Positions 83-28,800 of a stretch of DNA of 33,481 nt are shown in pieces. Origin of the DNA: an uncultured Prevotellaceae bacterium (GTDB taxonomy: Bacteria > Bacteroidota > Bacteroidia > Bacteroidales > Bacteroidaceae). The position numbers and the translations under genes were made by a program. The stretch is taken from NCBI GenBank assembly GCA_945787235.1, contig CALZGT010000001.1, positions 1 through 33,481 on the forward strand. Reading direction: 5' to 3'. Positions within the stretch are counted from its first letter, which is position 1. The number at the start of each line of letters is the position of its first letter. Under the pieces are notes generated by a model. That model made no database searches, was not told where the DNA came from, and worked only from the letters and a program-made list of their open reading frames with translations.

Positions 83-2419
83 TTAGTACTGGGGCAGGGG
101 GAAGTACCAGTTCTTGGTGTCGAGCAGCTTGTTGTAGAGTGCACTGTTCACGCTGCCACTGCGCTGGCTCACGCGCTTGGCCAGGTAGCTGGCATCACCG
201 CGGCGGTGGGCCACACGCATCAGGTCAAAGAAACGGGTACCCTCGAAGGCCAGCTCCAGGGCTTCCTCATCGACGATGAGGTCCTCGATGTAGTTCTGGA
301 TCTGTGCATCGTATGCACCGCCGTAGATGTCTGCCTTGCTCAGGGTCAGGCCTTCCTTGGCCGCTGCCTGCTGGATGAGTGCCACGTAGTCATAGACGCT
401 GTTCCTCATCTGGCTGGGAGGTATGACACCGCAGCCACGGGTGTGGATACCCAGGGTGGCATTGTCCTCGCTGGCATCGTAGGTCTCGCCCTTCGTGCTA
501 GCATAGATAACGGAGAGGTCGTTGCTGTAGTGGAACTGGTAGTTCTTCACGTTACCGTTGAAGTTGTTGATGTCGAAGTTCAGGAAAGGAGCCTGCTTCT
601 TCACCTCGCGGGCATCGAGGTAGTACAGCATCACGTCGCTGTTCTCATCCACGTAGTTCTCGTAGCTGACGGGTTCCCATGTATATTGCTCGTTGGAGAC
701 AGCACCGAAGGAACCATTCTCCACCAGGGCTTGGAAGGCAGCCTGAAGTTCAGCCTTGGTGCCGTATTCGCTTGTGCCGGTGGGGAATACTTGCTGCGTG
801 GTCTCGGTGGTGGTGACAGGGTTGCCTTCCTCATCCACGATATCATTGCCTTCCTCATCTACGGCAGGAATCTCGGTGGTCATGTTGAAGGTGACATAGT
901 AGGCGCTGTCCTTCACGGCAAAGTCGCTGTAGATTACGTTGCCGTCGGCATCGAGGATTTCCCTGGGGTACCAGGTATCGTTCTTGCACAGACCATTCTT
1001 GAGGATGGCAAAGGCGTAGCTGGGATAGCCTGCACGGTTCAGGGCCTCGGCATAGCGGAGCCATACCATGGCCTTACGGTAGATCATGGGATAGACGGTG
1101 GTGAAGCTGCCGCCGGGATTCTGCTTGGTGACGAACTTCTCCGTGCTGCTCATGCCGTTGGGATAGTATTGGTAGATATCCTGTACCCAGTACTGGCGTG
1201 CATCGCCGAAGCCTTCCTTGACGCTGAGCGTCATGTTGGCTGCCGTCTCGTTGTCAGCACCGATGAGCAGTTCGTACTGCTGGGCATTGCAGAGGTTGAA
1301 GTAGCCAGTGCTGGCTGCCAGCTGCTTGGCGTTGTACTGGGGAGTCAGGCGCACGGAGGCCGTGGTCAGTGAGTCGTTGGCACCGGTGCTTACGCTGATT
1401 TCAGAGGTATAGCCGAAGAGGTCGTTGACACCACGCAGTACGGTACCCCACAGCTTGTTGGTGGAAGAGGGGATGCAGGTGATGCTCTCCTGCGTACGGC
1501 TCTGGGCACCCTTCTCCGTCCAGGGGGTCCCACCATTCAAACCTGTGTACTCGGGCTTGTCCATGCGGTCAGTCTTGTACGTCATGTAACTGTAGCTGCT
1601 GGGCAGGGCACCACCGGGCTGCAGCTTGCCGTTGCCGCGCGTGTTGCCCAGGTAGTTGTAGTAGTACTGGGCAGCCTTGGCACAGCTGGCGGCATCACCC
1701 TTGGTGAGGTAGAGGTCGCCGAGGATGAGGTTGAGGGGTATCATGGCCTTGGTACTGTGGCACACGGTAGAGGTGAAGCCATAGTTCTCATAGCTGGGGA
1801 ATCCGTACTGTGTCTCGATGGCCAGGGCACGGGTCAGGAAGGGCTCCAGCAGGTCAGCCAGGTTATCGGCGTTGGCCTTGGGGTGATTGGGGTCACTGAT
1901 GAAGTTGTTGATCTTGTCCGTAGTGAGCAGGGGCTCGGTGTAGAAGGGCACTTCCCCATAGACCTGGATAAGCTGAAGGTAGGTCCAGGCACGGATGGCC
2001 TCTACCTGGGCGTACTCCTTCATCATGTAGGGCTGGTTGGTACCTGTCAGCAGGGTGGTGTCAGCCGAGGCCAGGTAGGCGTTGCAGGAGTTGATGACGT
2101 GGTAGAAGTCACTGGCACGCAGATAGCGGTTGCTGCCGTCGGTGGCCTTCTCCATGTCAAAGTCCAGGATGCTCTTGATGCTGTCGCTCAGGTAGGCGGT
2201 ACCATCCACGAGGTCACCGCGGCACTCGCCCAGCACCACATAGCGCTCGCCTATGTTCTGCATCGAGCGAAGGATGCCCCAGTAGGAGTACAGCGTATCG
2301 CCGGCTACCTCATAAGAATGGCGCTCGCTGTCAGGAGAAAGCATGTCCTGGCATGAGCTGAGACCCATGCCCAGGGTGGCGCTTCCCAAAAGTGATAATA
2401 TGATTGCTTTAACTTTCAT
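83..2419 (-). CDS. SusD/RagB-family outer-membrane nutrient-binding lipoprotein, unusually long at 778 aa
   Basis: ATG start confirmed (cat at 2417-2419). Lipoprotein signal MKVKAIILSLLGSATLGMGLSSC followed by QD. SusD-like N-terminal region (YSYWGILRSMQN). Canonical SusD C-terminal motif EEALELAFEGTRFFDLMR. Lies immediately downstream of a SusC-like gene. Confidence 0.9.
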   Translation of the reverse strand: MKVKAIILSLLGSATLGMGLSSCQDMLSPDSERHSYEVAGDTLYSYWGILRSMQNIGERYVVLGECRGDLVDGTAYLSDSIKSILDFDMEKATDGSNRYLRASDFYHVINSCNAYLASADTTLLTGTNQPYMMKEYAQVEAIRAWTYLQLIQVYGEVPFYTEPLLTTDKINNFISDPNHPKANADNLADLLEPFLTRALAIETQYGFPSYENYGFTSTVCHSTKAMIPLNLILGDLYLTKGDAASCAKAAQYYYNYLGNTRGNGKLQPGGALPSSYSYMTYKTDRMDKPEYTGLNGGTPWTEKGAQSRTQESITCIPSSTNKLWGTVLRGVNDLFGYTSEISVSTGANDSLTTASVRLTPQYNAKQLAASTGYFNLCNAQQYELLIGADNETAANMTLSVKEGFGDARQYWVQDIYQYYPNGMSSTEKFVTKQNPGGSFTTVYPMIYRKAMVWLRYAEALNRAGYPSYAFAILKNGLCKNDTWYPREILDADGNVIYSDFAVKDSAYYVTFNMTTEIPAVDEEGNDIVDEEGNPVTTTETTQQVFPTGTSEYGTKAELQAAFQALVENGSFGAVSNEQYTWEPVSYENYVDENSDVMLYYLDAREVKKQAPFLNFDINNFNGNVKNYQFHYSNDLSVIYASTKGETYDASEDNATLGIHTRGCGVIPPSQMRNSVYDYVALIQQAAAKEGLTLSKADIYGGAYDAQIQNYIEDLIVDEEALELAFEGTRFFDLMRVAHRRGDASYLAKRVSQRSGSVNSALYNKLLDTKNWYFPLPQY

Positions 2420-2442
2420 AATGCTTTTGTTTTAGTGGTTGT

Positions 2443-2582
2443 CCAGAGAGGCTGGGGTGGCTAGGGATTTTTAGTTGTTTTAGTTTTTCTAGTTGTTCTA
2501 GTTAAACTAGTTTTTCTAGTTTTTCTAGCTATTCTAGTTAAACTAGTTCTTCTAGTTTTTCTAGTTCTCCAAGCCTCTCTGG
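2443..2582. repeat. 9-bp-periodic CTAG-core tandem array (about 12 units) bracketed by an 11-bp perfect inverted repeat, in the susC-susD spacer
   Basis: CTAG starts at 2461, 2489, 2498, 2507, 2516, 2525, 2534, 2543, 2552 and 2561, with degenerate TTAG at 2471 and 2480. A 36-bp higher-order duplication covers 2498-2533 and 2534-2569 (32/36 identical). Inverted repeat ccagagaggct (2443-2453) pairs with agcctctctgg (2572-2582). Confidence 0.9.
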
Positions 2583-2589
2583 TTTTTGA

Positions 2590-5500
2590 TTAGAGATTGA
2601 TAGAAAGTCCTATGTTGAAACTACGTCCGCGGGGAACGAGGCCATTGTCAATTCCCTGGTAGAGGGTGCTGTTGCGGGCGGACATCTCAGGATCGGTACC
2701 GAGGTACTTGGTGAGGGTCAGCAGGTTGTTGCCTTCTGCCCATACCTTCAGGCCCTGCAGCCAGGAGTTGCTGAAAGGTACAGTGTAGGTGAGACGTACG
2801 TTCTTCAGCTTCAGGTAGCTGCCGTCCTCAATCCAGCGGTCGCTCATGCGCTCGTTGTTGCGCCAGTCATCGCTGTCCAGGTAGCAAACCTTGGGAATGC
2901 TCGTGCGCTGTCCCTCGTAGGTCCAGCGGTTGGTCATGGCCGTGGTCTGGTTGTAGGTGGTGTTGCCACCCTCCAGGATGCTGCGCTGGTAGTTGTAGAT
3001 GTCGTTGCCTAATGAATACTTGAAGTTCACGTCGAGGCGCAGGTTCTTCCAACTCAGGGAGGTGTAGATGTTACCATAGAGGTCGGGGTTGGGATTGCCT
3101 ATCACCACCTTGTCGTTGTCATCAATGACACCGTCACCATTCTGATCTACAAAGCGGACGTCACCGGCCTGGAAGTTTACGTAGGGATTCTCTGCCAGTC
3201 CCGTGGGGTACTTGAGGTAACCCTGGGCACCTGCGGTGCTGGCCTCGGCATCCGTAGAAAGCACGCCGTTGGTCTGCCATCCGTAGAAGCTGCCGGCAGC
3301 GTAACCTACGGCGGTGAGGATGTTCTTATCACCATATACGCTGGACACATAGCCGTTCAGACGGCCCGTCACGTTGCCAGAGGCATCGGTGAGGGTAATC
3401 TGGTTGGCAGCGGGCATCTTGGTCACTTCGTTCTTGTAGTGACCCAGGGTAGCACCTACTTCCCATTTCCAATCCTTCTTGTTGATGATGATGCCGTTCA
3501 GGTTGGCTTCTACACCGCGGTTGGTCATGGCTCCCTCATTGGTCCAGTACTGGCTCATACCGGAGATGTAGGAGAGGTCCTTGATGGTCAGCATGTTGTC
3601 CGTCTTGTGCCAGAAGAGGTCAAGGCCGGCATGCAGACGGTTGTTGAGGAACGAACCTTCGAGGGCTACGTTGTACTTCGTGGTTGTCTCCCACTGGATG
3701 GTACTGTTCTCGATGTTCTTGAGGTAGAGACCGACGGTGTTCTCAGTGACGCGCTGGCTCTCCCAGTAGGTACGTGCGGCATAGTAGTCGAGGTCGTCGT
3801 TACCGCTCTGATCTACACCGGCCGTCAGCTTCAGGTAGTTGACGTTCTTGTTGGTCTTGAACCACTTCTCGTTGCTGAGTACCCAACCCAACTGCAGTGA
3901 GGGGAAGATACCCCAGCTCACACCACCGATGTGGAGGCCGTCCTTGGTGTTGTCACCGAACTTGGAACTGGCCTCGGAACTGAGGGTGAACTGTGCAAAG
4001 TAACGGTTGGCATAGTTGTAGGTGGCATCGAGGTAGTAGGTCATGTCGATCCAGTTGTCCTTGGTACCGCCATAGTTTACGAACTGCATGTTCTTGCTGA
4101 TGTTGGGCAGCTTGTCGTTCTCATTGTTGTAGCCACGAATGTAGCTGTAGCTGTAGGAGTAGTTGTTGTAGCGCCAGCCACCCATGACATCGATGTGGTG
4201 TGCCCCGTACTTGTTCTTCCACTCCAGGGTGAGGTCGTTGTTCACCGTGGTTTCCTTGGTGAACTGTGACTTCAGCACCGAGGTGATGTTGCCCAGGTCG
4301 GTAAGTTCATAAAGGGTAGTACCGTTGATGGGGAGGAAGTACTTCTCGTTGTTGCGGTTCAACTGGTAGTTGAAACGGTCCTGGATGGAGAACTGCTTCG
4401 TAATCTGGTACTTGGGAGCTACGTTGATGTTGATCTGGGTCAGCTCGGCATAGTTCTTGTTCTTGCCCTCACCGTTGCGGACAATCCAATAGGGATTGCG
4501 CAGCGCCTCGTTGATGCCCATGTACTTGGGGAACTTGAAGGGGTTCTGAATCCACGTCGTGCTGCTCTTGGAAGCGTACTTGCCCGCATATTCATTAGAG
4601 AGTGACAGCTGGTTGTTGTTGTTCTCATCCATGTAGTATGCGTAGGGGCTCAGCATGGGAGCAGAGATGAGACCGAGGACATTGGTAGAACCGATGTTCT
4701 GCATGTCGTAGTTCTCGCTCCATCCGTTGTCGAGCACGTTGTAGGCCGTCTGGTTGTAGGCTACGTCAAGGGCTGTGGTAATCTTGTCGGTAATCTTGAT
4801 GTCGGTGTTGAAGCGCAGGTTCAGGCGGCTGTAGTCATTGCCCTTCTGCGTACCGTCTCCCTTGGTGTAGCCTAAGGAGAGCGAGTACATACCGATTTCG
4901 TCACCACCTTCCACATTGATCTTGTAGTTCTGCACGAAGGTATTGTGGTACATGTCCTTCTGCCAGTCGGTGTTGTTGTGGAATACGTTGTAGTAGTAGT
5001 TGGGATTGTCGTTGAGGAAGGCTGTGTTCACGTTGTCCGTGTTGCTCCAGTTCTGTTCGCGGAAATCCTTTACGGTGCTGGCCAGTTCACCCAGGTAGGT
5101 GCGGTACTGGTTACCATTCATCACGTCGAGTTTCTTGGGTACGAACTCCATACCGCCGAAGATGCGCACGTTGATCTTGGTGGCCATGGAGCGTCCGCGC
5201 TTTGTCTTGATGATGATGACGCCGTTGGCACCCTTGGCACCATAGAGGGCTGTCGCATTCTTCAGCACCTCTACGCTTTCCACGTTTTCAGGGTCGAGAC
5301 CCGAAAGGATGTTGTTGTAGAATCCCTCGTGGAGCGAGGTGCGTTCGTACTCAGGGTCGATGATGTTGCCGTCCAGCACGATGAGGGGCTGGGCGTTGGC
5401 ATTGATGCTGTTCACACCGCGGATGGTCAAGTAGGAACCCTGACCGAGCATACCGCTGCGGCTGGTGCTGCGCACGTCGCCTGCCAGGTGGTTCTCAATC

Positions 5501-6003
5501 TCAGTCTCCACGGTGATGCTGCTGGACTGGTCTATCTGCTTGCCGCTGCGGCTGGTGATGGTGGTGCCATCGGTGTAGTAGCCGCGCAACTGGGCACTGA
5601 TGAGGCTTGCGTCCTGGCCTGTCTTGCCCTTGATGGCTAACTGCAGGGGCTGGTAGTCGGGGGCATAGACATAGAGGCTTGTCGTGAAGGTAGGTACGGA
5701 GAGCTTGTAGCTACCGTCCTCCTCGGTCAGACAAGACCAGCGTTCACCGCCCAAGGCCTGTACGCGTACACCGCCCATGGGGTCGCCGGTGGCATTGTCG
5801 GTGATGCGACCGCTCACCTCCATCATCTCATATTTCTTTTCTTCCTTCGCTTTCTGTGCCTTGCGCTTGTCATAGGCGACGCCACTGTTCTCCGTGTTGT
5901 CGTCCTGAGCCATGGCGGGCAGCACGCCTACGCTGGAAAGCATAGCCATGCACAGACCATACTGGAAGGTCTTGTGCAGGAGTCTTTTTGTTGTATCTTT
6001 CAT
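2590..6003 (-). CDS. SusC/RagA-family TonB-dependent outer-membrane transporter (1137 aa)
   Basis: ATG at 6001-6003. Signal peptide ends in PAMAQDD. Carboxypeptidase-regulatory-like N-domain (VSGRITDNATGDPMGGVRVQA...EDGSYKL). Plug motifs TIRGVNSINANAQPLIVLDGNII and NATALYGAKGANGVIIIKTKRG. SusC Ca-binding-like motif GDVRFVDQNGDGVIDDND. No STN domain. Confidence 0.93.
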   Translation of the reverse strand: MKDTTKRLLHKTFQYGLCMAMLSSVGVLPAMAQDDNTENSGVAYDKRKAQKAKEEKKYEMMEVSGRITDNATGDPMGGVRVQALGGERWSCLTEEDGSYKLSVPTFTTSLYVYAPDYQPLQLAIKGKTGQDASLISAQLRGYYTDGTTITSRSGKQIDQSSSITVETEIENHLAGDVRSTSRSGMLGQGSYLTIRGVNSINANAQPLIVLDGNIIDPEYERTSLHEGFYNNILSGLDPENVESVEVLKNATALYGAKGANGVIIIKTKRGRSMATKINVRIFGGMEFVPKKLDVMNGNQYRTYLGELASTVKDFREQNWSNTDNVNTAFLNDNPNYYYNVFHNNTDWQKDMYHNTFVQNYKINVEGGDEIGMYSLSLGYTKGDGTQKGNDYSRLNLRFNTDIKITDKITTALDVAYNQTAYNVLDNGWSENYDMQNIGSTNVLGLISAPMLSPYAYYMDENNNNQLSLSNEYAGKYASKSSTTWIQNPFKFPKYMGINEALRNPYWIVRNGEGKNKNYAELTQININVAPKYQITKQFSIQDRFNYQLNRNNEKYFLPINGTTLYELTDLGNITSVLKSQFTKETTVNNDLTLEWKNKYGAHHIDVMGGWRYNNYSYSYSYIRGYNNENDKLPNISKNMQFVNYGGTKDNWIDMTYYLDATYNYANRYFAQFTLSSEASSKFGDNTKDGLHIGGVSWGIFPSLQLGWVLSNEKWFKTNKNVNYLKLTAGVDQSGNDDLDYYAARTYWESQRVTENTVGLYLKNIENSTIQWETTTKYNVALEGSFLNNRLHAGLDLFWHKTDNMLTIKDLSYISGMSQYWTNEGAMTNRGVEANLNGIIINKKDWKWEVGATLGHYKNEVTKMPAANQITLTDASGNVTGRLNGYVSSVYGDKNILTAVGYAAGSFYGWQTNGVLSTDAEASTAGAQGYLKYPTGLAENPYVNFQAGDVRFVDQNGDGVIDDNDKVVIGNPNPDLYGNIYTSLSWKNLRLDVNFKYSLGNDIYNYQRSILEGGNTTYNQTTAMTNRWTYEGQRTSIPKVCYLDSDDWRNNERMSDRWIEDGSYLKLKNVRLTYTVPFSNSWLQGLKVWAEGNNLLTLTKYLGTDPEMSARNSTLYQGIDNGLVPRGRSFNIGLSINL

Positions 6004-6036
6004 ATTCGTGATATTTGAATTAGGGGTGAGTGTTCG

Positions 6037-7974
6037 TTACTCTGTGGGGGCTTCTGCAGGGTCCTTGGCCACCATGATGATACGGTCGATACAGAGGTTG
6101 TTGGCGAATTTCTTGCCGGGATAGTTCTTGTCCGTACCTTTTCGTTCACTGGATGAACTGTTGGTTCCCAACTCCAGTACAGGCCAGCTGTAGCGCAGGT
6201 TCTTGTAACTGTAGGGGAAGGTGAAGTCCTTGAACAGCCAGATGGTATCTACCTTCAGTCCGTCATATATCACATTGTCCGCCTTGGTAAGGTTCTTCTT
6301 GTCGTTGGTAGCACCCTTGGAGGAACTGTTGTTGTTGCAGTAGTACAGGGTAGCCGTGATACGATGGCACAGTGTGTCGCCCTCGATGGTGTCGCTACTG
6401 GTCTTGTAGAAGTCGGGGACGCAGACTACACCGATGTCATAGGTGCCGCTCATCACCTCGCTTTCGCGGTTTTCACCGTCGGTGCCGAGGAGCTTGAAGA
6501 GGAACTTGATGGAGGTACCATCACCTGTGGGACGGAGTTCATAGAAATTGTTGTAGCTTACGGTACCTACCGTATCTACCCAGTCCTTGGCCACGGCGTT
6601 GCTGAAGGAGTAAGGCTGCGTGCTGCCGCTGAAACTCTGCGAGTCGTACCAGCAAGCCCATCCAATCTCGATGTTCAGGTTGGGCTGGTAGAGCTTCCTC
6701 GGGAAGTTCCAATTGTCGGTCATCACGCCGATACCATTACTCATCTTTATCTGCTTCTTGCCTGCCCAGAGACTCGTCTTGAGCCACTCGTTGTCTGTGC
6801 GGAGGGTATCACCGAAGGTGTTCAGGAGATACTCTATCTCACCGTCACCGGCTGCAATCAGTTCCTCGGTGTTCCAAAGAGGAGCTGAGGTGCTGCGCTT
6901 GGGCTGTCTGCGGGCATTGAACACGGTGGGAGAGATGATGTCCATGTTGATGCTCTGGTCGGTCAGGGAGTCCATCATGTCCTCAGTAATCTCACGGGTG
7001 GCATCCACGTGGCTGTCGCCCTTGTCGCTATCCACATAGTAGTTGGCGTACTTGTAGAGGGGCTTCAGACGGTTGTAGGCTGCCTCCCAGGCGGCATCCG
7101 TGGGAACTATCATCACGAAATCAGAGTCCTCACCCTCGATGTTGGCACCGAAGCTCTCCATGTAGGTCAGGTTCTTGTCTGAGTTGGTCGTAGTGAGGCG
7201 CTTGGTGCTGAAGAACATCTGGTTGGTGTTCGTATAGGCACTATCTACATAGGTGGGGTTGCCGTTGGCATCGGGATTACCCTCGATACTGTTGTACTCG
7301 TTGAAGTAGGTCGTATCGGTGTCCAGAATGTATGCATGATAGCGTGACACGCTGTTCTCGTTGGCATTGTAGCTGTCCTTGAGGTATTCGTACAGGTTGT
7401 ACTTGAAGGGCAGGTTCTCTGCCAGTGTGTGCAGGGTACCGTTGCTGGCCTCGATGTTCTTCTGCTTGATGGCTATCTTCTGCATCGTACCGTTCTTCTT
7501 GTCCAGTTCCAGGCGTTTGCCGTTGATCATCTGCAGGGTGTCGAGCCCCTCACCGATGACGCTGTAGCGCCACAAGGATACGGTGTTGGCCATCAGCTGC
7601 TGGTGAACACCATAGGGATTGGTTTCGAGCATCGATTCCCACTTGGCCACCTCAGCCTCTGTGAGTGCATCGTTCTCGGGGGCAAAGACCGTCATCAGCT
7701 GGGTGCCGCTGAGCATGTCCTTGTAGGTATAGGGCTTTCCTGTCTTGGGATTCGTCAGGGGATGTACCTGATCCTTGTAGTAGGTGGTCTTCTCTGCCAG
7801 AGCTGCATAGCGGCTCAGGTTCGGATTGGCCTTGATGCGCTCCCAGAGCGTTTCGGTGGCAGAGGTGCCTTCCGTAGGATTGTAGTGCTCGTCCCAGGTG
7901 TCGGTACATGAAGCACAGAGCACGAGGGCAGTGGCACCCAATCCCAGTTTTATGTTATTGATGATTCTTTTCAT
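6037..7974 (-). CDS. Surface lipoprotein with an N-terminal fasciclin (FAS1) domain and a roughly 450-aa uncharacterised C-terminal region
   Basis: Lipoprotein signal ...ALVLCASC followed by TDTWDE, where the acidic residues after Cys suggest surface export. FAS1 H1-like motif LMTVFAPENDAL and H2-like motif SNGTLHTLAENLPF. Confidence 0.75.
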   Translation of the reverse strand: MKRIINNIKLGLGATALVLCASCTDTWDEHYNPTEGTSATETLWERIKANPNLSRYAALAEKTTYYKDQVHPLTNPKTGKPYTYKDMLSGTQLMTVFAPENDALTEAEVAKWESMLETNPYGVHQQLMANTVSLWRYSVIGEGLDTLQMINGKRLELDKKNGTMQKIAIKQKNIEASNGTLHTLAENLPFKYNLYEYLKDSYNANENSVSRYHAYILDTDTTYFNEYNSIEGNPDANGNPTYVDSAYTNTNQMFFSTKRLTTTNSDKNLTYMESFGANIEGEDSDFVMIVPTDAAWEAAYNRLKPLYKYANYYVDSDKGDSHVDATREITEDMMDSLTDQSINMDIISPTVFNARRQPKRSTSAPLWNTEELIAAGDGEIEYLLNTFGDTLRTDNEWLKTSLWAGKKQIKMSNGIGVMTDNWNFPRKLYQPNLNIEIGWACWYDSQSFSGSTQPYSFSNAVAKDWVDTVGTVSYNNFYELRPTGDGTSIKFLFKLLGTDGENRESEVMSGTYDIGVVCVPDFYKTSSDTIEGDTLCHRITATLYYCNNNSSSKGATNDKKNLTKADNVIYDGLKVDTIWLFKDFTFPYSYKNLRYSWPVLELGTNSSSSERKGTDKNYPGKKFANNLCIDRIIMVAKDPAEAPTE

Positions 7975-8012
7975 ATCGTTTGTTGTTTGGTCGTTTTCAA
8001 CTATAAAAACAC

Positions 8013-10142
8013 TTACCAGATGTCCTCGGGGGTCATGGGGTTGTCATAAACCTCCTTGGCGCAGTACTCGATGTAGTCCATGTAGAACTGCTTGTTCTTG
8101 TCAGAGAGCACGGTCTTGAACTTCAGGTAATAGGTCTCGTCGGGATTCATCTCCTGACGTACGATGATACGACGGGTGGTGGTCTTCTCGGCACGAGCCG
8201 TCACCGTACCGCTGCCGATGCAGTAGTTCTCTGCACCCTTCATGAACCCGTTGTTACGCATCTTCTTGTCGTTCTCAGCGTTGAGGTCATCATCCGTGGG
8301 ACTGTCGGCCGTCCAGCCAAGAAGTTCGTGGGTACCACCGATGCGGAGATCAAGAGGAATACCTACGGCAGGCATCCTGTTCTTGTCAGAGCCGAAATAA
8401 ACTTGGCACATACCGCGCTGACCTGAGTTGTTCTGTACGGCATAACGGATTTCATAGATACCCTTCATGGGTACGGGAGGCAGACGGAAAATCATCTCGT
8501 AACTGCCTACGATGTTCAATTCGTCACCCTGCCAGTTGTTCCAATAGCGGTTGTAACCACCCAGATAGTAAAAGAGGGTGCCATCCATGATATCTACATC
8601 CTCCAGATAGCGGTACTTGCTGGTCTCGGGTATTCCGACTACGACTGCCTTGACGCGGTTGTCACGGATGTCGTTGTTCATGAACTCGGGGAAGAAGCTG
8701 GACACGTCAAAGCGGAGACGCTGCTTCTGGAAGTTCTCACGGGTAGCCTCATCGTAGGCCAGCACCTCGTTGATGGGGTAGATGTAGGCATTGACGGGGT
8801 TCTCGTACTCCGTGGTGTTCACCTGGATTCCTTCCTTGTCGGCATCGCATGACAGCTCGTGGTAGGTACCGCGGCGCCCGTTGTCCAGTACGGGGAAACG
8901 GTTGATGTAGATACCTGCAGGGGCTCCCTTGCCTCCTTCGTAGAGTTTCATCAGACGGCGCTTGCCCATCGTGGTGTGGAGCTCCCAGGTAGGAATGGTA
9001 TAGGGGTTGGAAGAGGGGTTGTAGCGATAGCCCTTCTCGTTGTAGTGGATGACGAGCTTGTTGGTAGGCAACTTCACGGGCAGGATGTGATAGGTCACAA
9101 ACTGGTTGAGCACGTTCTCGGGGTCGTTGTACTTGCCGTTGTCCTTGGCATTGGGGTACAGGTTCTGGTTCACTACCCAGTCCTTGATGTCCTCTACGGT
9201 GATTTCCGTGGCAGGCTTGCCGATCTTCTTCTCCCATACGTCATTGGTCTCGGCGAAGATGGTGTAACCGTAGTAGCGGTGTTCGGGCAGGAAGTTGTCG
9301 TTGGGCTCCGTGGGATGCTTGGGCAGCTGGGCTACCTCCTCGTTGAGGTACATCTGCTCCCATACCTCATCCTTCACCTTGCTCAGCGTGTCGAAGAGTC
9401 CGCAGGCTTCAATCATCTTGGCTGTAACGAGGAAACGTTCGTCCTTCAGGTCGATGTAGTTCTTCAGGATGTCGGCCACGCTCTCGTTGGAGGGAGCCAC
9501 TACCTGGTGCATCTGATGGATGCAACCATTGATGGCCACGATGTCGCGGTTCTTCAGGTCGATGAGGCTTCCATCCGTAATCTCACCCGTCTTCTTGTCC
9601 TTCTTTCCGTTGACATAGAGGGAGTCGGGGTCTTTGCCGAAGACCACCGTCAGCTTGCGGTCGTAGAGGTTGCTGATGAGCAACTCCTCGCCGTCCTTGA
9701 ACGAACTGGTCTGGTAGGCCTCGTTGTTGTCCTTGCTGTCAATGATACTGTTGAAGACGATGACCTTGCGGATGGAGTCCAGCGTTTCCTGGCTCTGGAA
9801 ACCTTCCCAGGTAGGCTCTGTGATGAGACCCTTGCTGCAAAGGCTGTCCAGGTAGGTCTGGATGGCCTTGTTGGTGGGGGCGAATACGGTGAAGTTACCG
9901 CGGGCACCCATCAACTGCAGTACCGTGGACTGCGAACGTGAACTGATCTTTACCTCACCCAACAGTCTGTAGTATTCGCTGTAGGTCGTGTCGTGTGATG
10001 ACAGGTAACTGCTGACCGTATATTGGGTAAAGGTATAGCGGTCGGACATGTCGATGTCCTCCTTGCAACTCTGGGTCATAGCAAGTCCCAGGACTCCCAT
10101 GAACAGCAGTGCGTATTTTTTCATTTTACTGATTTTTCTCAT
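8013..10142 (-). CDS. Surface lipoprotein with two FAS1 (fasciclin) domains and a C-terminal beta-sandwich-like region
   Basis: Signal ...GLAMTQSC followed by KEDIDMSD. FAS1 motifs FTVFAPTNKAIQTYL with INGCIHQMHQVVAPS, and YTIFAETNDVWEKK with AYIYPINEVLAYD. The true start could be the internal MKKYALLF at 10124. Confidence 0.75.
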   Translation of the reverse strand: MRKISKMKKYALLFMGVLGLAMTQSCKEDIDMSDRYTFTQYTVSSYLSSHDTTYSEYYRLLGEVKISSRSQSTVLQLMGARGNFTVFAPTNKAIQTYLDSLCSKGLITEPTWEGFQSQETLDSIRKVIVFNSIIDSKDNNEAYQTSSFKDGEELLISNLYDRKLTVVFGKDPDSLYVNGKKDKKTGEITDGSLIDLKNRDIVAINGCIHQMHQVVAPSNESVADILKNYIDLKDERFLVTAKMIEACGLFDTLSKVKDEVWEQMYLNEEVAQLPKHPTEPNDNFLPEHRYYGYTIFAETNDVWEKKIGKPATEITVEDIKDWVVNQNLYPNAKDNGKYNDPENVLNQFVTYHILPVKLPTNKLVIHYNEKGYRYNPSSNPYTIPTWELHTTMGKRRLMKLYEGGKGAPAGIYINRFPVLDNGRRGTYHELSCDADKEGIQVNTTEYENPVNAYIYPINEVLAYDEATRENFQKQRLRFDVSSFFPEFMNNDIRDNRVKAVVVGIPETSKYRYLEDVDIMDGTLFYYLGGYNRYWNNWQGDELNIVGSYEMIFRLPPVPMKGIYEIRYAVQNNSGQRGMCQVYFGSDKNRMPAVGIPLDLRIGGTHELLGWTADSPTDDDLNAENDKKMRNNGFMKGAENYCIGSGTVTARAEKTTTRRIIVRQEMNPDETYYLKFKTVLSDKNKQFYMDYIEYCAKEVYDNPMTPEDIW

Positions 10143-10161
10143 GATGTATTCCTCCTAACGA

Positions 10162-12225
10162 TTAGTCATACTGAGACTTGTTCCATACAGGGTTCTGCTC
10201 CAGGTGCTGCACACCATTGGCATCCTTGCTGGCCTGAATCTCCTTATAATAAATAAGGTTGTACAATCCGTAGCGGTTCTTCATGTGGTTGCGCAGCGAA
10301 GCTACCTGTCCACTCTGCAGGGTATTTGACATGAAGGTTTCGAGCATCAGCTTTACACCTGCGGCACCGTTGCCGATAGGACGTGCCTCGGTGTATTCGC
10401 GTACATCCTTCGTGCCATCCATGCCACCGGCGTGACGTTCTGCAAAGCGTACGAGGTCGAACCAACGCTTGCCTTCTGCCAGCAGTTCTATCTGTCGCTC
10501 GTTCAGTACGGCTACCTCCACGGGCTGAATGCTCTTGTCTGGCGTCTTGGGGGCGCAGATGTTACCAGCGGTCTTGGCTATCGTGGCACTGGTGAAGTAG
10601 GCATAGCCATCGTTGTTCATCACATCGGTGGCAGGTACCTCGGGATGGGTGGCATCGGGGCAGTACCAGCGGCGGTGGATGGCATTGACGATGCGGAGGG
10701 CATCCTTGGCGTAGTCATCAGTTGCCTTATTACTCAGGCAAGCCAATGCCTCGGCCTTCTGCAGCATGACATCGCTCATGCGGTAGATGATCCAGTTGCG
10801 GTATGCCTGTTCGTCTGTACTGGTGCTTATCTTCAGACCATTGTCCTCGACCTTGCCGTTCTCGGGGGTGCTTACGCTCGCATCTCTCCACTTGAAGCAG
10901 TAGGCTCCAGGGAGGCTCGTGGTGTAGCTCGTGCTACCCAGTCTGGAAACGTTGCCCATGCAGCTGAACCAGGCACGGGAGTCGTACAGACGGGAACTTC
11001 CGCTGTAGATAGCATCAATGGCAGACTCGCTGATGGCCAGATGTACTTTGTCACCATATCCCCACTGCGCTGTAGCCACTTCATTCTTACGGCTGTCGCT
11101 GCTGTTGAACTGGAGTTCGAAGATGCTCTCGTCACTGTTGCCATTGGTGAAAATCTCATTGTAGGCCGTGAGACTCACGCCACCGCCGTCCTTGAAGTAC
11201 TCATAACGGTTCTTGTACATATCGCAATACTGAAGGCCGTAGTTTTCAGTCTCACTTCGGCTCGAACCATAGTTGCTGTTGTTCAGGATGGTCTGCTCGT
11301 TGAGCTTCTGGAGGGAGAGGTCGGCGTAGTGGATACACATATTGTAGTCACCCTCTACGCTGTGAGGTACGAACATGCTGTCGTTGCGCTCCACAAGGTT
11401 GGCAATGTTACCCTTGTTGATACCGCTTTTCACCCAGACGGTATCCATCTCGATACCACGTCCCTGGTGCAGGGAGGCACGCCACAGGTACATGTCGCTC
11501 AGTAGGGCATAGATGGCCGTGTTGGTCATAAGTCCCTTCGTGTCCTTGAGGGAGGTGTAGCGGTTGGCCGCCTGTCCCTTCACACGCTCCACGTCGATGA
11601 TAAGGGAGTCGAGGACCACGAGCTGGTTCGTAGCATTGAAGTATTCCACTTCCGTATCCTTGTTGATGACCTTCGTGGTGTAGGGAATGTCCTTGAAGGA
11701 ACGGAGCAGGTAGAAATAGTTCAGGGCGCGCAGGGCGGTAATCTCTGCCCTCATCTGGCTCCACTCACTGGAAGTGAACTGCTTGTCGTTGGCAAGTACG
11801 TCAGCTCCATGGTAGAGAATCTTGTTGCAGTAGTTGATGGTTGTGTAGAAACCGCTCCAGTCGAAATACGTATTGGCAGAGTCGCGTTCCAGACGGCCCT
11901 CACGCAGTTCGTTGTAGAAATTCTTGGTACTGGTGCTTTGGTCGGCGGTGGAGAGGACGTAGGTGTCAGAGCGAAGGTCGCCCCAGAGCACCATCTTCTC
12001 CAGCGTGCCGCACATGCTGGTATAGGCAGCATAGCGTACACCCTCAAGGTCATTCTTGTCTTCCCAGAAATTCTCTTCCACAATCTGAGTCTGGGGGTAG
12101 ATGGTCAACCAATCCTGGCAGGAGGTCAGGGCTGCCAAAGCTACAGCCCCCATTCCAACCTTCCCGAGGGAGAAGCCGTGGAATGTCTTGCTGACCATTC
12201 TTGAGATTATGTTGTGTATTCTCAT
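10162..12225 (-). CDS. SusD/RagB-family outer-membrane nutrient-binding lipoprotein (687 aa)
   Basis: ATG at 12223-12225. Lipobox ALAALTSC followed by QD. SusD-type motifs ENFWEDKNDLEGVRYAAY and ELLAEGKRWFDLVRF. Lies downstream of a SusC-like gene. An alternative start at 12198 is possible. Confidence 0.9.
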   Translation of the reverse strand: MRIHNIISRMVSKTFHGFSLGKVGMGAVALAALTSCQDWLTIYPQTQIVEENFWEDKNDLEGVRYAAYTSMCGTLEKMVLWGDLRSDTYVLSTADQSTSTKNFYNELREGRLERDSANTYFDWSGFYTTINYCNKILYHGADVLANDKQFTSSEWSQMRAEITALRALNYFYLLRSFKDIPYTTKVINKDTEVEYFNATNQLVVLDSLIIDVERVKGQAANRYTSLKDTKGLMTNTAIYALLSDMYLWRASLHQGRGIEMDTVWVKSGINKGNIANLVERNDSMFVPHSVEGDYNMCIHYADLSLQKLNEQTILNNSNYGSSRSETENYGLQYCDMYKNRYEYFKDGGGVSLTAYNEIFTNGNSDESIFELQFNSSDSRKNEVATAQWGYGDKVHLAISESAIDAIYSGSSRLYDSRAWFSCMGNVSRLGSTSYTTSLPGAYCFKWRDASVSTPENGKVEDNGLKISTSTDEQAYRNWIIYRMSDVMLQKAEALACLSNKATDDYAKDALRIVNAIHRRWYCPDATHPEVPATDVMNNDGYAYFTSATIAKTAGNICAPKTPDKSIQPVEVAVLNERQIELLAEGKRWFDLVRFAERHAGGMDGTKDVREYTEARPIGNGAAGVKLMLETFMSNTLQSGQVASLRNHMKNRYGLYNLIYYKEIQASKDANGVQHLEQNPVWNKSQYD

Positions 12226-12249
12226 ATTTGTTGTTTTTATGGTTTTGTT

Positions 12250-12351
12250 CTAGTGGGGCTAGGGTAACTCGTGAATGACGTTAGTTACGTTACTATCGTT
12301 AATGATGTCCTAACGTTCTTAGCGTTCTTATCGTTAATCTAGCCGATCTAG
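12250..12351. repeat. 9-bp-periodic array with CGTT/ACGT-core units flanked by CTAG units, in the second susC-susD spacer
   Basis: CTAG at 12250 and 12259. CGTT at 12279, 12288, 12297, 12314, 12323 and 12332. CTAG at 12339 and 12348. Spacing is 9 bp with one 1-nt phase slip. A weak flanking inverted repeat pairs ggctag (12257-12262) with ctagcc (12339-12344). Confidence 0.8.
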
Positions 12352-12362
12352 TTCTCTTTGTC

Positions 12363-15300
12363 TTAGAAGCCGATGTTCACGCTGCAGGTGAAAGACTTGG
12401 CACGAGGTGTCTTGCTGTAGTCCGTGGCCACGGCAAAACCTCCGATACCTACTTCAGGATCCACACCCGTGTACTTGGTCCAGCAGAACACGTTGTTGAG
12501 GGTGGCAGAGAGGTAGAGGGTCTTGATGCCGGCCTTCTTCATCCACTGCTTCTTGTTGTCGAACGTGTACTTCATCTGGATGTACTGCAGACGGAGGTAG
12601 TCACCATTCTCTACGTAGCGGTCGCTGGGCAGTGAGTTGTAGCTCTTGTAACCGTTCTGTGTCGTGAGGGCGCGGGGAATCTCCGTGATGTCACCGTTCT
12701 TGCGCCAGCGCCATGTGGTGGCATAGCTCTGGTTGGTGTTGTCCAGCATGCTCTCGTAGTTGGCACGTGCCATGTTGACAATCTGGTTGCCGATGCGGAA
12801 GTTGAATGAAGCGTTCAGCTCGAACTTGCCGTAGTAGAGGTTTACACCGAAACCACCATAGCACTTGGGGTTGGAGTTGCCCAGATATACCATATCGTAG
12901 CGGTCAATGTTACCATCGTGGTTGATGTCCTCATAGATGGCATCACCACCCTGGAACTGGTAGCGGCTACCCTCGGTGTAGCAGTAGTACATGGGCAGGG
13001 GGTTACCTTTCTGGTCTGTCAGCATGTTGCCCTGGGCATCGAAGGCGATGGGGCAGGTGCTGTTTTCACCACGACGGGCTGCAGCAGCTGCCGTGTTGAT
13101 GGGGTTGCCCTTCTTGTCGTAACCCGTACCCAGGCGGGCTGCCTCATCCGCACTGGAGAAGGTGTTGCCGTTGGCATCCACCTCGGCATATCCGTAGGCA
13201 TTCCATGAGGTGTTGGTATAACCGTTGTGGTCGTAGTCGTAGCGATATACACCCTTTGACCTCAGACCGTAGATGGAACCGAGGGCGTTGTTGATCTGCA
13301 CGCGCTGGTTGAAGGAGAGGTTGGTGGGCTCCCAGGTCTCAGAACCGTTCAGGTTCTCCAGGATGAGCTCGTTCATCTCCTCCACGGTGTTGAAGTTCTG
13401 AGATACGTTACCACGCAGCTTCATTGAGAACTTGCCTGCCTTGGCAAACTTGCCCGTGTTGAAGTTGAGCTCCCATCCCTTGTTGCGCATCCTACCAGCG
13501 TTGATCCAGTTCAGGTTGTTGAAACCGTTGGCAGAGGGGATTCGGAGACCCGTCATGAGCAGGTCGGTGGTCTTCTTGTCATACACCTCGAACTCGAAGT
13601 TCAGCAGGTCATCGAGCAGGCCCAGGTTGGCACCGATGTTCCATTGTGCCGTCTTCTCCCACTTCAGGTTGGTCAGGGAGAGGTTATCGGGACGAACTAC
13701 GGTGTGACCGTTGTAGTAACCGGCAGAGCTGTACTTGTTGTACTGGTTGCCGCCGGCACCGCCCGTGTTACCTGTGATACCCCATGAACCACGTACACCG
13801 AGCATGCTGATGTACTTGCGGGTCTTCTCCATGAATTTCTCATCGATGACGTTCCAGCGTCCACCGAAGCTGGGGAAGGTACCATACTTGTGGCCGCGAC
13901 CGAAGGCTGTACGGCCATCGGTACGAACGGTGACATCCACAGAGTACTTGCTCTTATAAGAATAATGCAGCTGCTCCATGAAAGAATGGCTGCGCCACTC
14001 GCTGTTGCTGGCACCGGCTCCCTTCATCAGGGCCACCACGGTCGGATCGGTGATACCGTTGGGTACGTTCCAGAGTTCCAGGTTCTGGTTGGAAGAAGCA
14101 CCTGTTTCCATCTCGAAGCGGAACATACCGGAGAGGCTGTGGTCAGAATTCTTGAAATGAGAATAGTAGCGAAGGTCATGACGCGTGGTGAATCCCAGTG
14201 ACTTGTATTCGCTGTTGGACACCAGGTTGCGCTCGTTGTTGGCCAGGTTGGCACTGTTGTCACCACCCCATACCCATGACATGGGCTTCAGGTCGGCGGG
14301 ACAGAACTTGTCATCACTGGTGTTGTAGATGTTCAGCTGCACGTCACCCACGTAGTCCAGACGATGGGAGTCGTTGTCCTTGCCCCAGAGCTTGTAGGTC
14401 ACGTCGAACTGGGGAGTCAGGTTGTACTGCTTCATCAGCCACCAGGCACCATAGGCACGTGCTACGGGGTTACCATTCTTGAAGCGGTCACGCAACTCGT
14501 AGCTGGTGTAGTGTCCGTCGTTGGTGAAGCCCGTCGTGTTGCTGCTGCTGAGGGTAGCGGCGATGGGCAGCATGTTGAAGTAGTTACCCGTCAGGCGACC
14601 CGTCTCGTCGTATTCATAGATGCTCATGTTGGGCATGGCACCATAGGCGCGGGCCATGATGTCGTTGCCGTAGTTCTTGTGGTTGTTGGTGAAGGTCATG
14701 TTCACCGTGGCACGGAACTGGATGCGGTCACTCACGTTGTAGTCGATGACGGTAGATTCCGTGAACTGGTCCATCTTCTGGCCAATGACAGAACCCATAC
14801 TCTTGTTGTAACCGGCGCCGATGCGGAAGGTTGCCTTGTCACCACCACCCGTCAGGTTGATATAGTAGCGGTGCTCCTTACCAAACTGAGTCACGGCATC
14901 AATCCAGTCGGTATTGTGCGTGTAGTGGTTGTAGATGTAGGGCATTTCCGTGTTGTAGTCCAACTCAGGAATGGAGGTTGCCGTCTGGTTGGGGTTGAAG
15001 TAAGCCTCCTTGAGCATCATGGTGTAACCGTCACCATTCAGCATTTTGTATCCTTCGGGCTGCCAGGTACCGTTGAACTTGTAGGAGAAGTTCACCTGGG
15101 TAGGACCACGGCGACCACGGCGCAACTTGATTTCGATGACACCGTTGGAACCCTTTACACCCCACTTGGCTGCTGAGGCGGCATCCTTCAGTACCGTGAT
15201 GCTCTCGATGTCCTCCGTGTTCACGTTCAGCAGGGTAGAGAACTGCTCCTCGTTGTCCATGTCCTCGAAGTTGATGGTCTGTGCATCGTCGGGAAGTTCG

Positions 15301-15896
15301 AAGATGTGGTCATTTACAACGATAAGCGGCTGGGCATTACCGTTGATGGTCGTGGTACCGCGCAGACGCATCGTAGTACCTGAACCCAGGTTACCGGAGT
15401 TGGCCACGATGTCCAGACCGGCAATCTGACCCTGCAGTGCCTGATCTACAGACTCGAAGGCCAGACCCTCCATGTCATCCATGCTGAAGTTGGAGACAGC
15501 TCCGGCAAACTCACGTGCAGGAATGTCCAGACCCGTGGTGGGAGCCTTCTTCTTGGCGGTGACGTTCACCACCTTCATCTCCTTCGTGTTGTCCTGCAGA
15601 CGGATCTTGAACACCGTCTTGTTTCCGATGACCTGTACCCACTTGCGGTATCCGATATAAGATACCTCCAGGTTGTTCTTGGGGTCTTTGATGTTCATCG
15701 TAAAGTTACCGTTGAAGTCAGTGACCTGGCTGTTCACGATACGGTTGTTCTTATCGACCTCTTTTACGTTGGCGCCTACTACCACGTCGATATCATCGCT
15801 AACGGTACCAGAGATACGTCTTGTCTGTGCGCTGGTCGTCAGGGTCACCATGAGGCTGACGATTCCGACCCATAATAATTTCATATATCTATTCAT
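12363..15896 (-). CDS. SusC/RagA-family TonB-dependent outer-membrane transporter (1177 aa)
   Basis: ATG at 15894-15896. Signal peptide ends in TLTTSAQ. Carboxypeptidase-regulatory-like domain (ISGTVSDD...NGNFTMNI). Plug motifs RLRGTTTINGNAQPLIVVND and GVKGSNGVIEIKLRRGR. Motif GGDAIYEDINHDGNIDRYD. C-terminal aromatic residue (...SVNIGF). No STN domain. Confidence 0.93.
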   Translation of the reverse strand: MNRYMKLLWVGIVSLMVTLTTSAQTRRISGTVSDDIDVVVGANVKEVDKNNRIVNSQVTDFNGNFTMNIKDPKNNLEVSYIGYRKWVQVIGNKTVFKIRLQDNTKEMKVVNVTAKKKAPTTGLDIPAREFAGAVSNFSMDDMEGLAFESVDQALQGQIAGLDIVANSGNLGSGTTMRLRGTTTINGNAQPLIVVNDHIFELPDDAQTINFEDMDNEEQFSTLLNVNTEDIESITVLKDAASAAKWGVKGSNGVIEIKLRRGRRGPTQVNFSYKFNGTWQPEGYKMLNGDGYTMMLKEAYFNPNQTATSIPELDYNTEMPYIYNHYTHNTDWIDAVTQFGKEHRYYINLTGGGDKATFRIGAGYNKSMGSVIGQKMDQFTESTVIDYNVSDRIQFRATVNMTFTNNHKNYGNDIMARAYGAMPNMSIYEYDETGRLTGNYFNMLPIAATLSSSNTTGFTNDGHYTSYELRDRFKNGNPVARAYGAWWLMKQYNLTPQFDVTYKLWGKDNDSHRLDYVGDVQLNIYNTSDDKFCPADLKPMSWVWGGDNSANLANNERNLVSNSEYKSLGFTTRHDLRYYSHFKNSDHSLSGMFRFEMETGASSNQNLELWNVPNGITDPTVVALMKGAGASNSEWRSHSFMEQLHYSYKSKYSVDVTVRTDGRTAFGRGHKYGTFPSFGGRWNVIDEKFMEKTRKYISMLGVRGSWGITGNTGGAGGNQYNKYSSAGYYNGHTVVRPDNLSLTNLKWEKTAQWNIGANLGLLDDLLNFEFEVYDKKTTDLLMTGLRIPSANGFNNLNWINAGRMRNKGWELNFNTGKFAKAGKFSMKLRGNVSQNFNTVEEMNELILENLNGSETWEPTNLSFNQRVQINNALGSIYGLRSKGVYRYDYDHNGYTNTSWNAYGYAEVDANGNTFSSADEAARLGTGYDKKGNPINTAAAAARRGENSTCPIAFDAQGNMLTDQKGNPLPMYYCYTEGSRYQFQGGDAIYEDINHDGNIDRYDMVYLGNSNPKCYGGFGVNLYYGKFELNASFNFRIGNQIVNMARANYESMLDNTNQSYATTWRWRKNGDITEIPRALTTQNGYKSYNSLPSDRYVENGDYLRLQYIQMKYTFDNKKQWMKKAGIKTLYLSATLNNVFCWTKYTGVDPEVGIGGFAVATDYSKTPRAKSFTCSVNIGF

Positions 15897-15907
15897 GGTA
15901 GTGCGTA

Positions 15908-18889: not shown

Positions 18890-19010
18890 ACAATTTGAAT
18901 TAGGTTGTTTATTATTTGGTTAATTGTTTTTCGGTATCATTGCATAGTCTCTTTGCCGGCAGGGCGCAGTTCACCCTTTTGCTGTTTGCATACGTTCGTG
19001 ATATTAAGGG

Positions 19011-19018
19011 CAAATTTA
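19011..19018 (-). promoter_or_regulatory. Candidate Bacteroidetes -7 promoter box (TAnnTTTG) for the FAS1/SusC/SusD operon
   Basis: The minus strand reads TAAATTTG. A TTTG (plus-strand caaa at 19041-19044) lies about 22 nt upstream as a possible -33 element. This implies a 5' leader of roughly 120 nt before the ATG at 18889. Based on a motif match only. Confidence 0.4.
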
Positions 19019-19149
19019 GAAAAAAATATCAATACCATCACAAATAACATATAAAAATCCATAAAAAATGCGCAAAAAGTACAAAAAAGCTGCCTGGCGA
19101 TTCCAAATAAGGCATTGAACCCCCAATTATTGTTACTTTTTTAACGCAA

Positions 19150-19198
19150 GAACCGGTCGCAGGCTGTGGTGTGTTTCACCATGCTCTGCGACCGGTTC
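19150..19198 (-). terminator. 13-bp-stem hairpin downstream of the T9SS glycoside hydrolase gene; candidate intrinsic terminator
   Basis: gaaccggtcgcag (19150-19162) is the exact reverse complement of ctgcgaccggttc (19186-19198), with a 23-nt loop. It sits 41 nt after the stop at 19239. There is no clear U-tract. Confidence 0.5.
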
Positions 19199-19238
19199 CA
19201 GTCGTATTGTTCTTCCTTGTAGCTTGCCCAGTGTGGAG

Positions 19239-28616: not shown

Positions 28617-28792
28617 GTTGTGCGGAAAAGCTAGAATAACTAGTATAGCTAGGTCAGCTAGATTAGCTAGATTAACTAGATTAACTAGATAAACTAGTAG
28701 AACTAGAATAACTAGAATAACTAGACTGACTAGACTGACTAGACTGACTAGCTTGGCTAGCTTAACTGGATAACTAGCTTAACTAGCACAAC
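28617..28792. repeat. 9-bp-periodic CTAG-core tandem array (18 CTAG units plus 1 degenerate) bracketed by a 7-bp inverted repeat, upstream of miaA
   Basis: CTAG occurs every 9 bp without a phase break from 28631 to 28757 (15 sites). Then CTGG at 28766 and CTAG at 28774 and 28783. ctagactga is repeated perfectly 3 times (28721-28747). ctagattaa occurs twice and ctagaataa three times. Inverted repeat gttgtgc (28617-28623) pairs with gcacaac (28786-28792). Confidence 0.92.
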
Positions 28793-28800
28793 TTGCACTG

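Follow-up and report, generated by a model that had tools for sequence, protein, structure and literature searches.

Minisatellites, or variable-number tandem repeats (VNTRs), and contingency repeats of bacteria consist of short head-to-tail units whose copy number varies between strains, with higher-order duplications and decayed units at their edges, and they occupy both intergenic and in-frame genic positions. Ordinary VNTRs have units that are specific to a locus and that mutate evenly along their length. The tandem repeats in the Borgs of Methanoperedens are pervasive, fast evolving, recently formed and enriched in A, are absent at the orthologous sites of near relatives, and lie in spacers as well as in frame in open reading frames (ORFs), where they produce low-complexity linkers (PMC9879509). 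Borg copies are perfect, unit and period differ from locus to locus, and there is no family-wide core. Here, we describe an array of 9-bp units built on the tetranucleotide CTAG, located in the spacer between a susC-like gene and a susD-like gene of an uncultured Prevotellaceae bacterium (GenBank assembly GCA_945787235.1, contig CALZGT010000001.1, positions 1 to 33,481). The whole of this 33,481-nucleotide stretch is referred to as the window, and the array as array 1. The organism is a pig-gut member of the Bacteroidales, represented by metagenome assemblies. Its closest known kind is the bacterial VNTR or minisatellite, and the closest known phenomenon is the Borg tandem repeat.

We judge the chances slightly better than even (roughly 0.55) that array 1 is a member of a lineage-restricted, slippage-driven 9-bp minisatellite family that is tolerated at permissive sites. 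As in Borgs, A-richness, in-frame genic copies and turnover are all present. Perfect, locus-unique units are absent; the CTAG arrays differ from Borg repeats in being imperfect outside a shared CTAG core, in having a period fixed at 9 and in residing on bacterial chromosomes. Unlike ordinary VNTRs, they recur at dozens of unrelated loci in several Bacteroidales families and share a single 4-bp palindromic core and a single 9-bp register, the other positions of the unit being variable; the core is otherwise near-absent from the genome. The full-text literature that we searched yielded no account of 9-bp CTAG arrays in Bacteroidales.

All large genes of the window lie on the minus strand, and the spacer that holds array 1 is made up as follows.

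83..2419, minus strand: SusD/RagB-family gene (Pfam), downstream of array 1
2420..2589, minus strand: complete susC-to-susD spacer, 170 bp (orthologues, 20 to 74 bp)
2420..2442, minus strand: A-rich 23 nt immediately 5' of the susD ATG, alignable with orthologous spacers (window versus the related contigs L238 and L240)
2443..2456, unstranded: inverted-repeat arm beside susD, perfect over 11 nt at 2443-2453, 23 nt ahead of the susD ATG
2468..2566, minus strand: array 1, a 9-bp tandem array that reads AACTAGnnn on the mRNA strand
2569..2582, unstranded: inverted-repeat arm beside susC, perfect over 11 nt at 2572-2582, 7 nt past the susC stop
2590..6003, minus strand: SusC-like TonB-dependent transporter gene (Pfam), upstream of array 1

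An earlier note, made from the sequence of the window alone, had drawn attention to a 170-bp spacer with phased 9-bp CTAG repeats. Gene calls and Tandem Repeats Finder (TRF) bear this out, as do shuffled sequences: (CTAGN5)2CTAG has 20 matches in the window and 0.00 in 100 dinucleotide-preserving shuffles. The note was right about the repeat but counted about 12 units where we count ~11. Nine are intact, with CTAG in exact 9-bp phase at 2489..2561 (plus-strand coordinates), and two decayed AACTAAnnn units form the 3' end on the mRNA strand. A single out-of-phase CTAG lies at 2461 in the same spacer. TRF resolves the array (2468-2566) at period 9 with 10.6 copies (2472-2566), also at period 18, and at period 36 with 2.6 copies and 89% match, in agreement with the 36-bp higher-order structure described earlier. 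The A-rich strand of array 1 is the sense strand.

To place array 1 among other genomes, we scanned one genome per species from 185,579 species for four consecutive AACTAGN3 units, which returned at least 115 stretches. Among the matches listed, 73 of 115 stretches belong to Bacteroidales from the gut, rumen or mouth. The listed carriers from metagenomes are Prevotella/Prevotellaceae, Paludibacteraceae, "Bacteroidaceae" and Muribaculaceae, and the listed isolates are Prevotella disiens, P. conceptionensis, Hoylesella shahii and Ihuprevotella massiliensis. Several genomes matched many times, with up to three arrays within 8 kb. The Bacteroidales arrays contain 5 to 20 units (median, 7), in which CTAG is invariant and the 5-nt spacer is variable (2 to 12 distinct units per array); the non-Bacteroidales matches listed are mostly perfect repeats of one unit, often coding. 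A logo from 100 unselected units reads A-A-C-T-A-G-R-W-A. Only CTAG, sometimes extended to AACTAGTT, is palindromic within the units.

Of the 895 CTAGs in 522 kb of Bacteroidales loci, 738 belong to clusters and 157 stand alone, where ~1975 isolated ones would be expected. The register is specific: of the 654 CTAG-CTAG distances of 30 bp or less in the same loci, 572 measure 9 bp, while distances of 10 bp number 25 and those of 8 bp number 13. Arrays that lay outside the selection imposed by the search pattern comprise 12 with period 9 and one with period 10. A 12-unit CTAG array of the CCTAGTTCAA type at L202 2377-2490, with a 10-bp period, is the sole clear departure from 9 bp among the unselected arrays. 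A bare (CTAGN5)x6 pattern was rejected as a family marker: it is non-specific, matching viral contigs more than 120 times, mostly in perfect coding repeats (collagen-like GXY). With AACTAGN3 x4, the viral contigs gave 100 stretches, of which 2 have variable spacers; among these stretches the Bacteroidales type is essentially absent.

Other short tandem repeats, of period 7, 8, 11 and 14, are common in the same Bacteroidales loci, where they often adjoin CTAG arrays. Examples are GTAAGGA x8.7, CTTTTCAC x14.6 and AAAGGTGA x6.4, and the GTGAAAAG type occurs in several genomes; sites include L172 3082-3142, L177 1179-1295, L194 1217-1267 and L140 3946-3984, among others. Their number indicates that these genomes are generally prone to tandem repeats. 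The CTAG nonamers are the largest single tandem-repeat family in these loci.

Array 1 is not the only array in the window. At 28631-28798 lies a larger one of its kind, which the earlier note overlooked, and a third, decayed array makes up the other SusC/SusD junction.

28631..28798, plus strand: array 2, of the same 9-bp CTAG family, with 15 strictly phased CTAGs and 3 further units
12226..12362, minus strand: third, decayed array, which is the other SusC/SusD junction; 137 bp with 4 CTAGs (orthologues, 19 and 12 bp)

At 137 bp, this junction also exceeds the 11 to 38 bp that had been given for the other junctions of the locus, as do further spacers of 349, 214 and 90 bp. TRF reports period 9 for array 2 at 28631-28786, and its units run CTAGAATAA, CTAGATTAA, CTAGACTGA, etc. 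Array 2 occupies the 214-bp spacer between a PRiA4_ORF3-like gene and miaA and has no flanking inverted repeat. Its A-rich AACTAGnnn reading lies on the plus strand, antisense to the flanking genes and opposite to that of array 1. Directly beside array 2, at 28584-28615, stands an AT-rich 7/14-bp tandem repeat (CAATTAACAATGAAT x2.2) that overlaps miaA's TTG start; for this gene, a 320-aa reading is required if the P-loop is to be included. The decayed array at 12226-12362 reads AACTAGATC GGCTAGATT AACGATAAG AACGCTAAG AACGTTAGG, followed by CCCTAGCCCCACTAG. One of its motifs, CCCTAGCCCCA, is similar to the right flank of array 1 (CCCTAGCCACCCCA).

Of the 33 CTAGs in the window, 31 fall within the three array-bearing spacers, which together span 1.6% of its length; the other two are at positions 498 and 29532. 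Once the two main arrays are masked, no tetranucleotide of the window is as depleted as CTAG, whose observed-to-expected ratio (O/E) is 0.09 under a second-order Markov expectation. Two related contigs, L240 and L241, have CTAG O/E values of 0.04 and 0.06 and contain no arrays in 42 kb; since these array-free relatives are equally depleted, the depletion does not depend on the arrays. GATC is depleted as well, with an O/E of 0.23 in the window and 0.34 in L241, though to a lesser degree in L240 (0.66).

An enzyme specific for CTAG could have purged the tetranucleotide from genes, in which case the arrays might be decoys or safe landing pads that concentrate its target where it does no harm, or might be written or expanded by the enzyme itself. 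The candidates are a BfaI-like restriction system, a Vsr-like nickase and an IS5-type transposase; BfaI of Bacteroides fragilis cuts CTAG, and IS5 prefers it. The extreme depletion agrees with this proposal (2 sites in ~33 kb outside the array-bearing spacers; O/E of 0.04 to 0.09), and among the decayed cores some are CCAG or CTGG, which very-short-patch-type correction would be expected to produce. However, the array-free relatives are just as depleted, the 9-bp step is left unaccounted for, no target-site duplications were seen, and the literature searched shows no link of CTAG methylation or restriction to these taxa. The absence of any transposase or insertion sequence between paired arrays speaks against an insertion-sequence landing pad, and we consider the decoy proposal as a whole highly unlikely.

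We evaluated the turnover of the arrays by comparing strains and orthologues. For array 1, we count 11 units in the window; a second strain, with an identical SusD protein, has 14, one of them shorter by one base. Array 2 was compared among assemblies that share an identical flanking 178-aa protein, and it has 10 to 18 units in seven strain assemblies (the window and six others), all different. Copy number thus differs between strains at both arrays, as expected of the variable-number tandem repeat that the earlier note had considered. Two further assemblies (L326 and L327) carry runs of N exactly at array 2, in the spacer after position 2037. Since such gaps fall exactly at the array in two independent assemblies (2 of 8), the arrays probably break or gap short-read assemblies.

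Orthologous susC-susD spacers are shorter and mostly lack the array. At 82% SusD identity (L238), the spacer at the same syntenic locus is 37 bp with 0 units; at 74% identity, it is 74 bp with a 4-unit array; at 70%, it is 20 bp with 0 units; and at 68%, it is 48 bp, lacks CTAG and has three AACAAG units. These spacers (0, 4, 0 and 0 CTAG units) do not support the earlier suggestion that the array sets the SusC:SusD ratio, and arrays also lie beside or inside unrelated genes. The earlier note had itself said that a regulatory module would be contradicted by random scatter of the arrays, by copy number that varies freely with no effect on transcript structure or SusC/SusD levels, or by orthologous loci that lack the array yet keep identical expression; with copy number varying freely among strains, most of what we observed points this way. 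A conserved ratio device does not fit because orthologues lack the array, strains differ in it, and the repeat occurs beside and inside unrelated genes.

The positions of the arrays in related loci, by crude ORF calls, are 39 in co-directional, 7 in convergent and 2 in divergent spacers, with 19 inside ORFs. When all spacers of these loci are counted, arrays are present in 37 of the 242 that separate co-directional genes, in 7 of the 45 with convergent flanks and in 1 of the 45 with divergent flanks (Fisher p = 0.017), indicating that they follow 3' ends and avoid promoter-only regions. Avoidance of divergent spacers is the sole positional bias that the arrays show. The arrays fill their spacers, with median gaps of 31 nt to the stop codon upstream and 45 nt to the start codon that follows, and in four cases the first CTAG provides the stop codon of the upstream gene. 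Their neighbors are diverse and include era/der, gldL/gldM, gyrB, tRNA synthetases, fumarase and topoisomerase. Enrichment at susC-susD or at any gene class was ruled out; SusD accounts for 2 of 38 downstream genes, one of which is that of the window. In 2 of 38 cases, the gene immediately downstream of an array is a small one that encodes a member of the 23S rRNA intervening-sequence protein family, and at L128 7263-7898 such a gene stands between two similar arrays.

In-frame arrays inside genes were found in GH92 (two arrays), type I HsdR (two arrays), topoisomerase, MutS2, UvrD/PcrA, MetH, a MiaB-like enzyme and a dihydrolipoyl dehydrogenase homologue. The majority fall between Pfam domains and a few within a domain match, and they are read as (T/S)-S-x or L-x-x. 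The array of the dihydrolipoyl dehydrogenase homologue aligns to a surface hairpin of 1ebd. Two loci, L163 (5026-5065) and L227 (2545-2584), have an in-frame array at the same place in this homologue.

Where the assignment is clear (35 cases), the A-rich strand is the sense strand 26 times (p = 0.006). Local GC skew predicts the orientation about equally well (24:11, against 26:9 for gene strand), so transcription and replication cannot be separated as its cause. This orientation, together with the prevalence of arrays in transcribed spacers between co-directional genes and the stable stem that closes array 1, would be expected if the CUAG repeats, identical in both orientations, acted in RNA, either by binding an oligomeric RNA-binding protein or by marking sites of endonuclease cleavage; alternatively, an A-rich unstructured stretch with its closing stem might tune translation or segmental stability. 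By either route, the output of susC relative to susD would be set, as the earlier note had proposed. There are precedents in TRAP and HutP, which bind phased (G/U)AG triplets, and translation initiation in Bacteroidota favors A-rich leaders. Against such a role, array 2 has the opposite orientation in the same window, convergent spacers are occupied equally often (7 of 45), arrays also lie in coding regions, orthologous operons do without the array, unit number drifts between strains, and 67 of 69 arrays have no clamp like that of array 1. Rfam 15 gave 0 matches at gathering score in the window and 0 at E<=1 in either spacer. A scan for sigma-70 promoters and terminators returned weak consensus matches only, the consensus being uninformative for Bacteroidota. 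We regard an RNA-level function as quite unlikely.

In units aligned between strains, the four core positions account for 3 differences and the five spacer positions for 25, where ~12 core differences would be expected if changes were uniform (p = 1.4e-4). The invariance of the CTAG core, as the earlier note called it, is therefore a matter of constraint. Because CTAG is purged elsewhere in the genome, something keeps it in the arrays. We take the kept CTAG and the 9-bp register as evidence of a CTAG-dependent process that acts on the whole family, be it a binding factor or core-dependent propagation.

One form that a binding factor could take, in line with a suggestion of the earlier note, is a dimeric DNA-binding protein (ribbon-helix-helix, TrpR-like or nucleoid-associated) for which the arrays would be cooperative lattices: its dimers would each occupy one two-fold-symmetric CTAG and, spaced at 9 bp, build up a filament. 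Its function would be distributed over the genome (chromosome organization, insulation or roadblock), so that single arrays could turn over. Ribbon-helix-helix centromere arrays (ParB of pCXC100, ParG/parH and omega heptads) and the TrpR and MetJ operators are alike in being made of unspaced short repeats; in the pCXC100 ParB centromere these are 9-bp repeats with binding centers between base pairs. Short tandem boxes are bound by MetJ, omega and ParG, and trp operators have the CTAG-centered AACTAGTT motif, the TrpR half-site, as do CTAG arrays. A lattice would account for the invariant palindromic core, the fixed 9-bp register (572 of the 654 short distances) with its variable spacer and the constraint on the core between strains, and the near-absence of CTAG elsewhere would give it a clean signal. 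Yet the known arrays are single and stand beside the genes that they control, on plasmids or in promoters, whereas CTAG arrays occupy many chromosomal sites, lie inside genes and avoid divergent promoter spacers. No candidate protein was found, and no partition or regulator gene adjoins the arrays, whose neighbors are housekeeping and glycan-utilization genes. The relatives L240 and L241 are equally depleted in CTAG yet array-free in 42 kb, arrays inside cytoplasmic housekeeping enzymes look like tolerance rather than use, and an orientation bias is unexpected of a symmetric site. A protein lattice is, in our estimation, unlikely, if less so than a role in RNA.

The perfect 11-bp inverted repeat reported at 2443-2453 and 2572-2582 is present and extends to 14 nt at 93% identity (2443-2456 and 2569-2582), with 112 nt between the arms. 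In silico, the RNA of the array 1 spacer folds with this stem closed (-45.2 kcal/mol, z = -8.4). The susD-side arm is also found in strain L002, and the inverted repeat was not seen in the four orthologous susC-susD spacers, including that of L238 at 82% identity. An 11-nt flanking inverted repeat occurs in 2 of 69 arrays, which rules it out as a family feature; the clamp is local to the site of array 1. Since 10 nt was reached in 0 of 1380 shuffles, arrays may sometimes grow in hairpin loops. On either side of the L163 array in the dihydrolipoyl dehydrogenase homologue, conserved coding sequence forms an 11-nt inverted repeat (CGACGGAAACA / TGTTTCCGTCG); none was detected around the corresponding L227 array.

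A mobile element has also to be considered here, as a perfect 11-bp inverted repeat brackets array 1 and is not shown by the 82% orthologue. Its precedent is MITE239 with the BrickBuilt minisatellite of Porphyromonas gingivalis, which belongs to the miniature inverted-repeat transposable elements (MITEs) and is likewise an intergenic Bacteroidales element with inverted repeats and an internal tandem array. The BrickBuilt unit is reportedly ~23 bp, inside a defined mobile element with many copies. In our case, the array itself is the family feature and the inverted repeat is specific to the array 1 locus, array 2 and 67 of 69 related arrays lack a terminal inverted repeat, and flanks differ between arrays. 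No target duplication was seen, and the left end plus first unit (22 nt) has 0 matches in the metagenome collection. A MITE-like origin is thus largely refuted and retains very little credibility, in line with the exclusion of MITEs in the earlier note.

Its two other exclusions are upheld as well. Clustered regularly interspaced short palindromic repeats (CRISPR), in which direct repeats of 23 to 55 bp alternate with unique spacers of comparable size, usually near cas genes, do not apply to a 9-bp unit of a 4-bp core and a 5-bp spacer, and the window has no cas domains. The repetitive extragenic palindromes and bacterial interspersed mosaic elements (REP/BIME) of enterobacteria resemble the CTAG arrays in their genome-wide spread after 3' ends, in co-directional and convergent spacers, and Rickettsia palindromic elements (RPE) resemble them in their in-frame presence within housekeeping genes. 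However, REP and RPE are discrete imperfect palindromes of 35 to 150 bp spread by transposition (REP by the RAYT transposase), whereas the CTAG arrays are tandem, 9 bp in period and without conserved ends, an anatomy that matches neither. REP/BIME units are imperfect palindromes of 20 to 40 bp that have a conserved head. Within the 9-bp units only the CTAG or AACTAGTT core is palindromic, and the window has no Y1 transposase.

Considered together with this range of contexts, a tolerated minisatellite would work as follows. Arrays would arise and turn over fast in gut and rumen Bacteroidales, gaining and losing units in 9-, 18- or 36-bp steps, most simply via slipped-strand mispairing. They would persist where added length is harmless, namely, in spacers after gene 3' ends and in interdomain linkers and protein surface loops, where the 9-bp period keeps the reading frame of genic arrays. 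Array 1 would have arisen by recent expansion, variable among strains, in the susC-susD spacer of a single species-level lineage. It lies upstream of the A-rich 23 nt, which stay unbroken, and would sit in the loop of the local 11- to 14-bp hairpin, whose stem would loop out the insertion and, in the mRNA, return the susC stop and the susD start to ~30 nt apart, near the ancestral spacing. The intact 23 nt ahead of susD and the hairpin looping argue that array 1 has no dedicated role in SusC:SusD levels, and we infer that it is nearly neutral at this locus.

Several observations weigh against a minisatellite that is merely tolerated. Plain slippage with neutral mutation fails to explain an invariant 4-bp core beside a varying 5-bp spacer, and neutral slippage leaves the near-exclusive 9-bp register in non-coding DNA unaccounted for. 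The coincidence of the A-rich strand with the sense strand hints at selection tied to transcription or replication. The 11-nt inverted repeats flanking 2 of 69 arrays exceed anything in the shuffles, and hairpins may have a part in the origin of arrays. The gene calls in related loci are crude, and array 1 may conceivably affect SusC/SusD after all. A stronger proposal, which we consider possible but less likely than not, is that the arrays may be the footprint of dedicated CTAG-recognizing machinery limited to certain gut and rumen Bacteroidales lineages. Such machinery could be a protein that polymerizes on DNA or on CUAG-repeat RNA in a 9-nt register, or an enzyme that adds or preserves CTAG-plus-5 units.

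If real and undescribed, the family of CTAG arrays would be a principal cause of length differences between strains of gut and rumen Bacteroidales, altering operon spacers and adding low-complexity linkers to housekeeping enzymes, and the arrays could be used to type strains. For the biology of glycan utilization, a susC-susD spacer lengthened by such an array should not be taken as a conserved regulatory element. That phased arrays hold nearly all copies of a near-forbidden tetranucleotide sharpens the question of how CTAG is removed in one place and retained in another. If dedicated CTAG machinery does exist, the arrays would represent a new class of genome-wide cis element in CTAG-excluding genomes.

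Beyond the arrays, the region from 83 to 18889 is a tandem glycan-utilization locus that encodes two pairs of SusC and SusD along with three large proteins with fasciclin domains, and its synteny is kept in L240 and L241. On the plus strand, GC skew stays above zero from position 1 to ~19 kb and below zero from ~20 kb onward, despite the all-minus genes. The switch at ~19000-20500 could be a replication terminus or an inversion or acquisition boundary at the edge of the glycan-utilization locus. Further along, 23344-25362 encodes a PIF1-like helicase fused to C-terminal tetratricopeptide (TPR) repeats, and its ORF overlaps the adjoining GH43-like gene by 38 nt.

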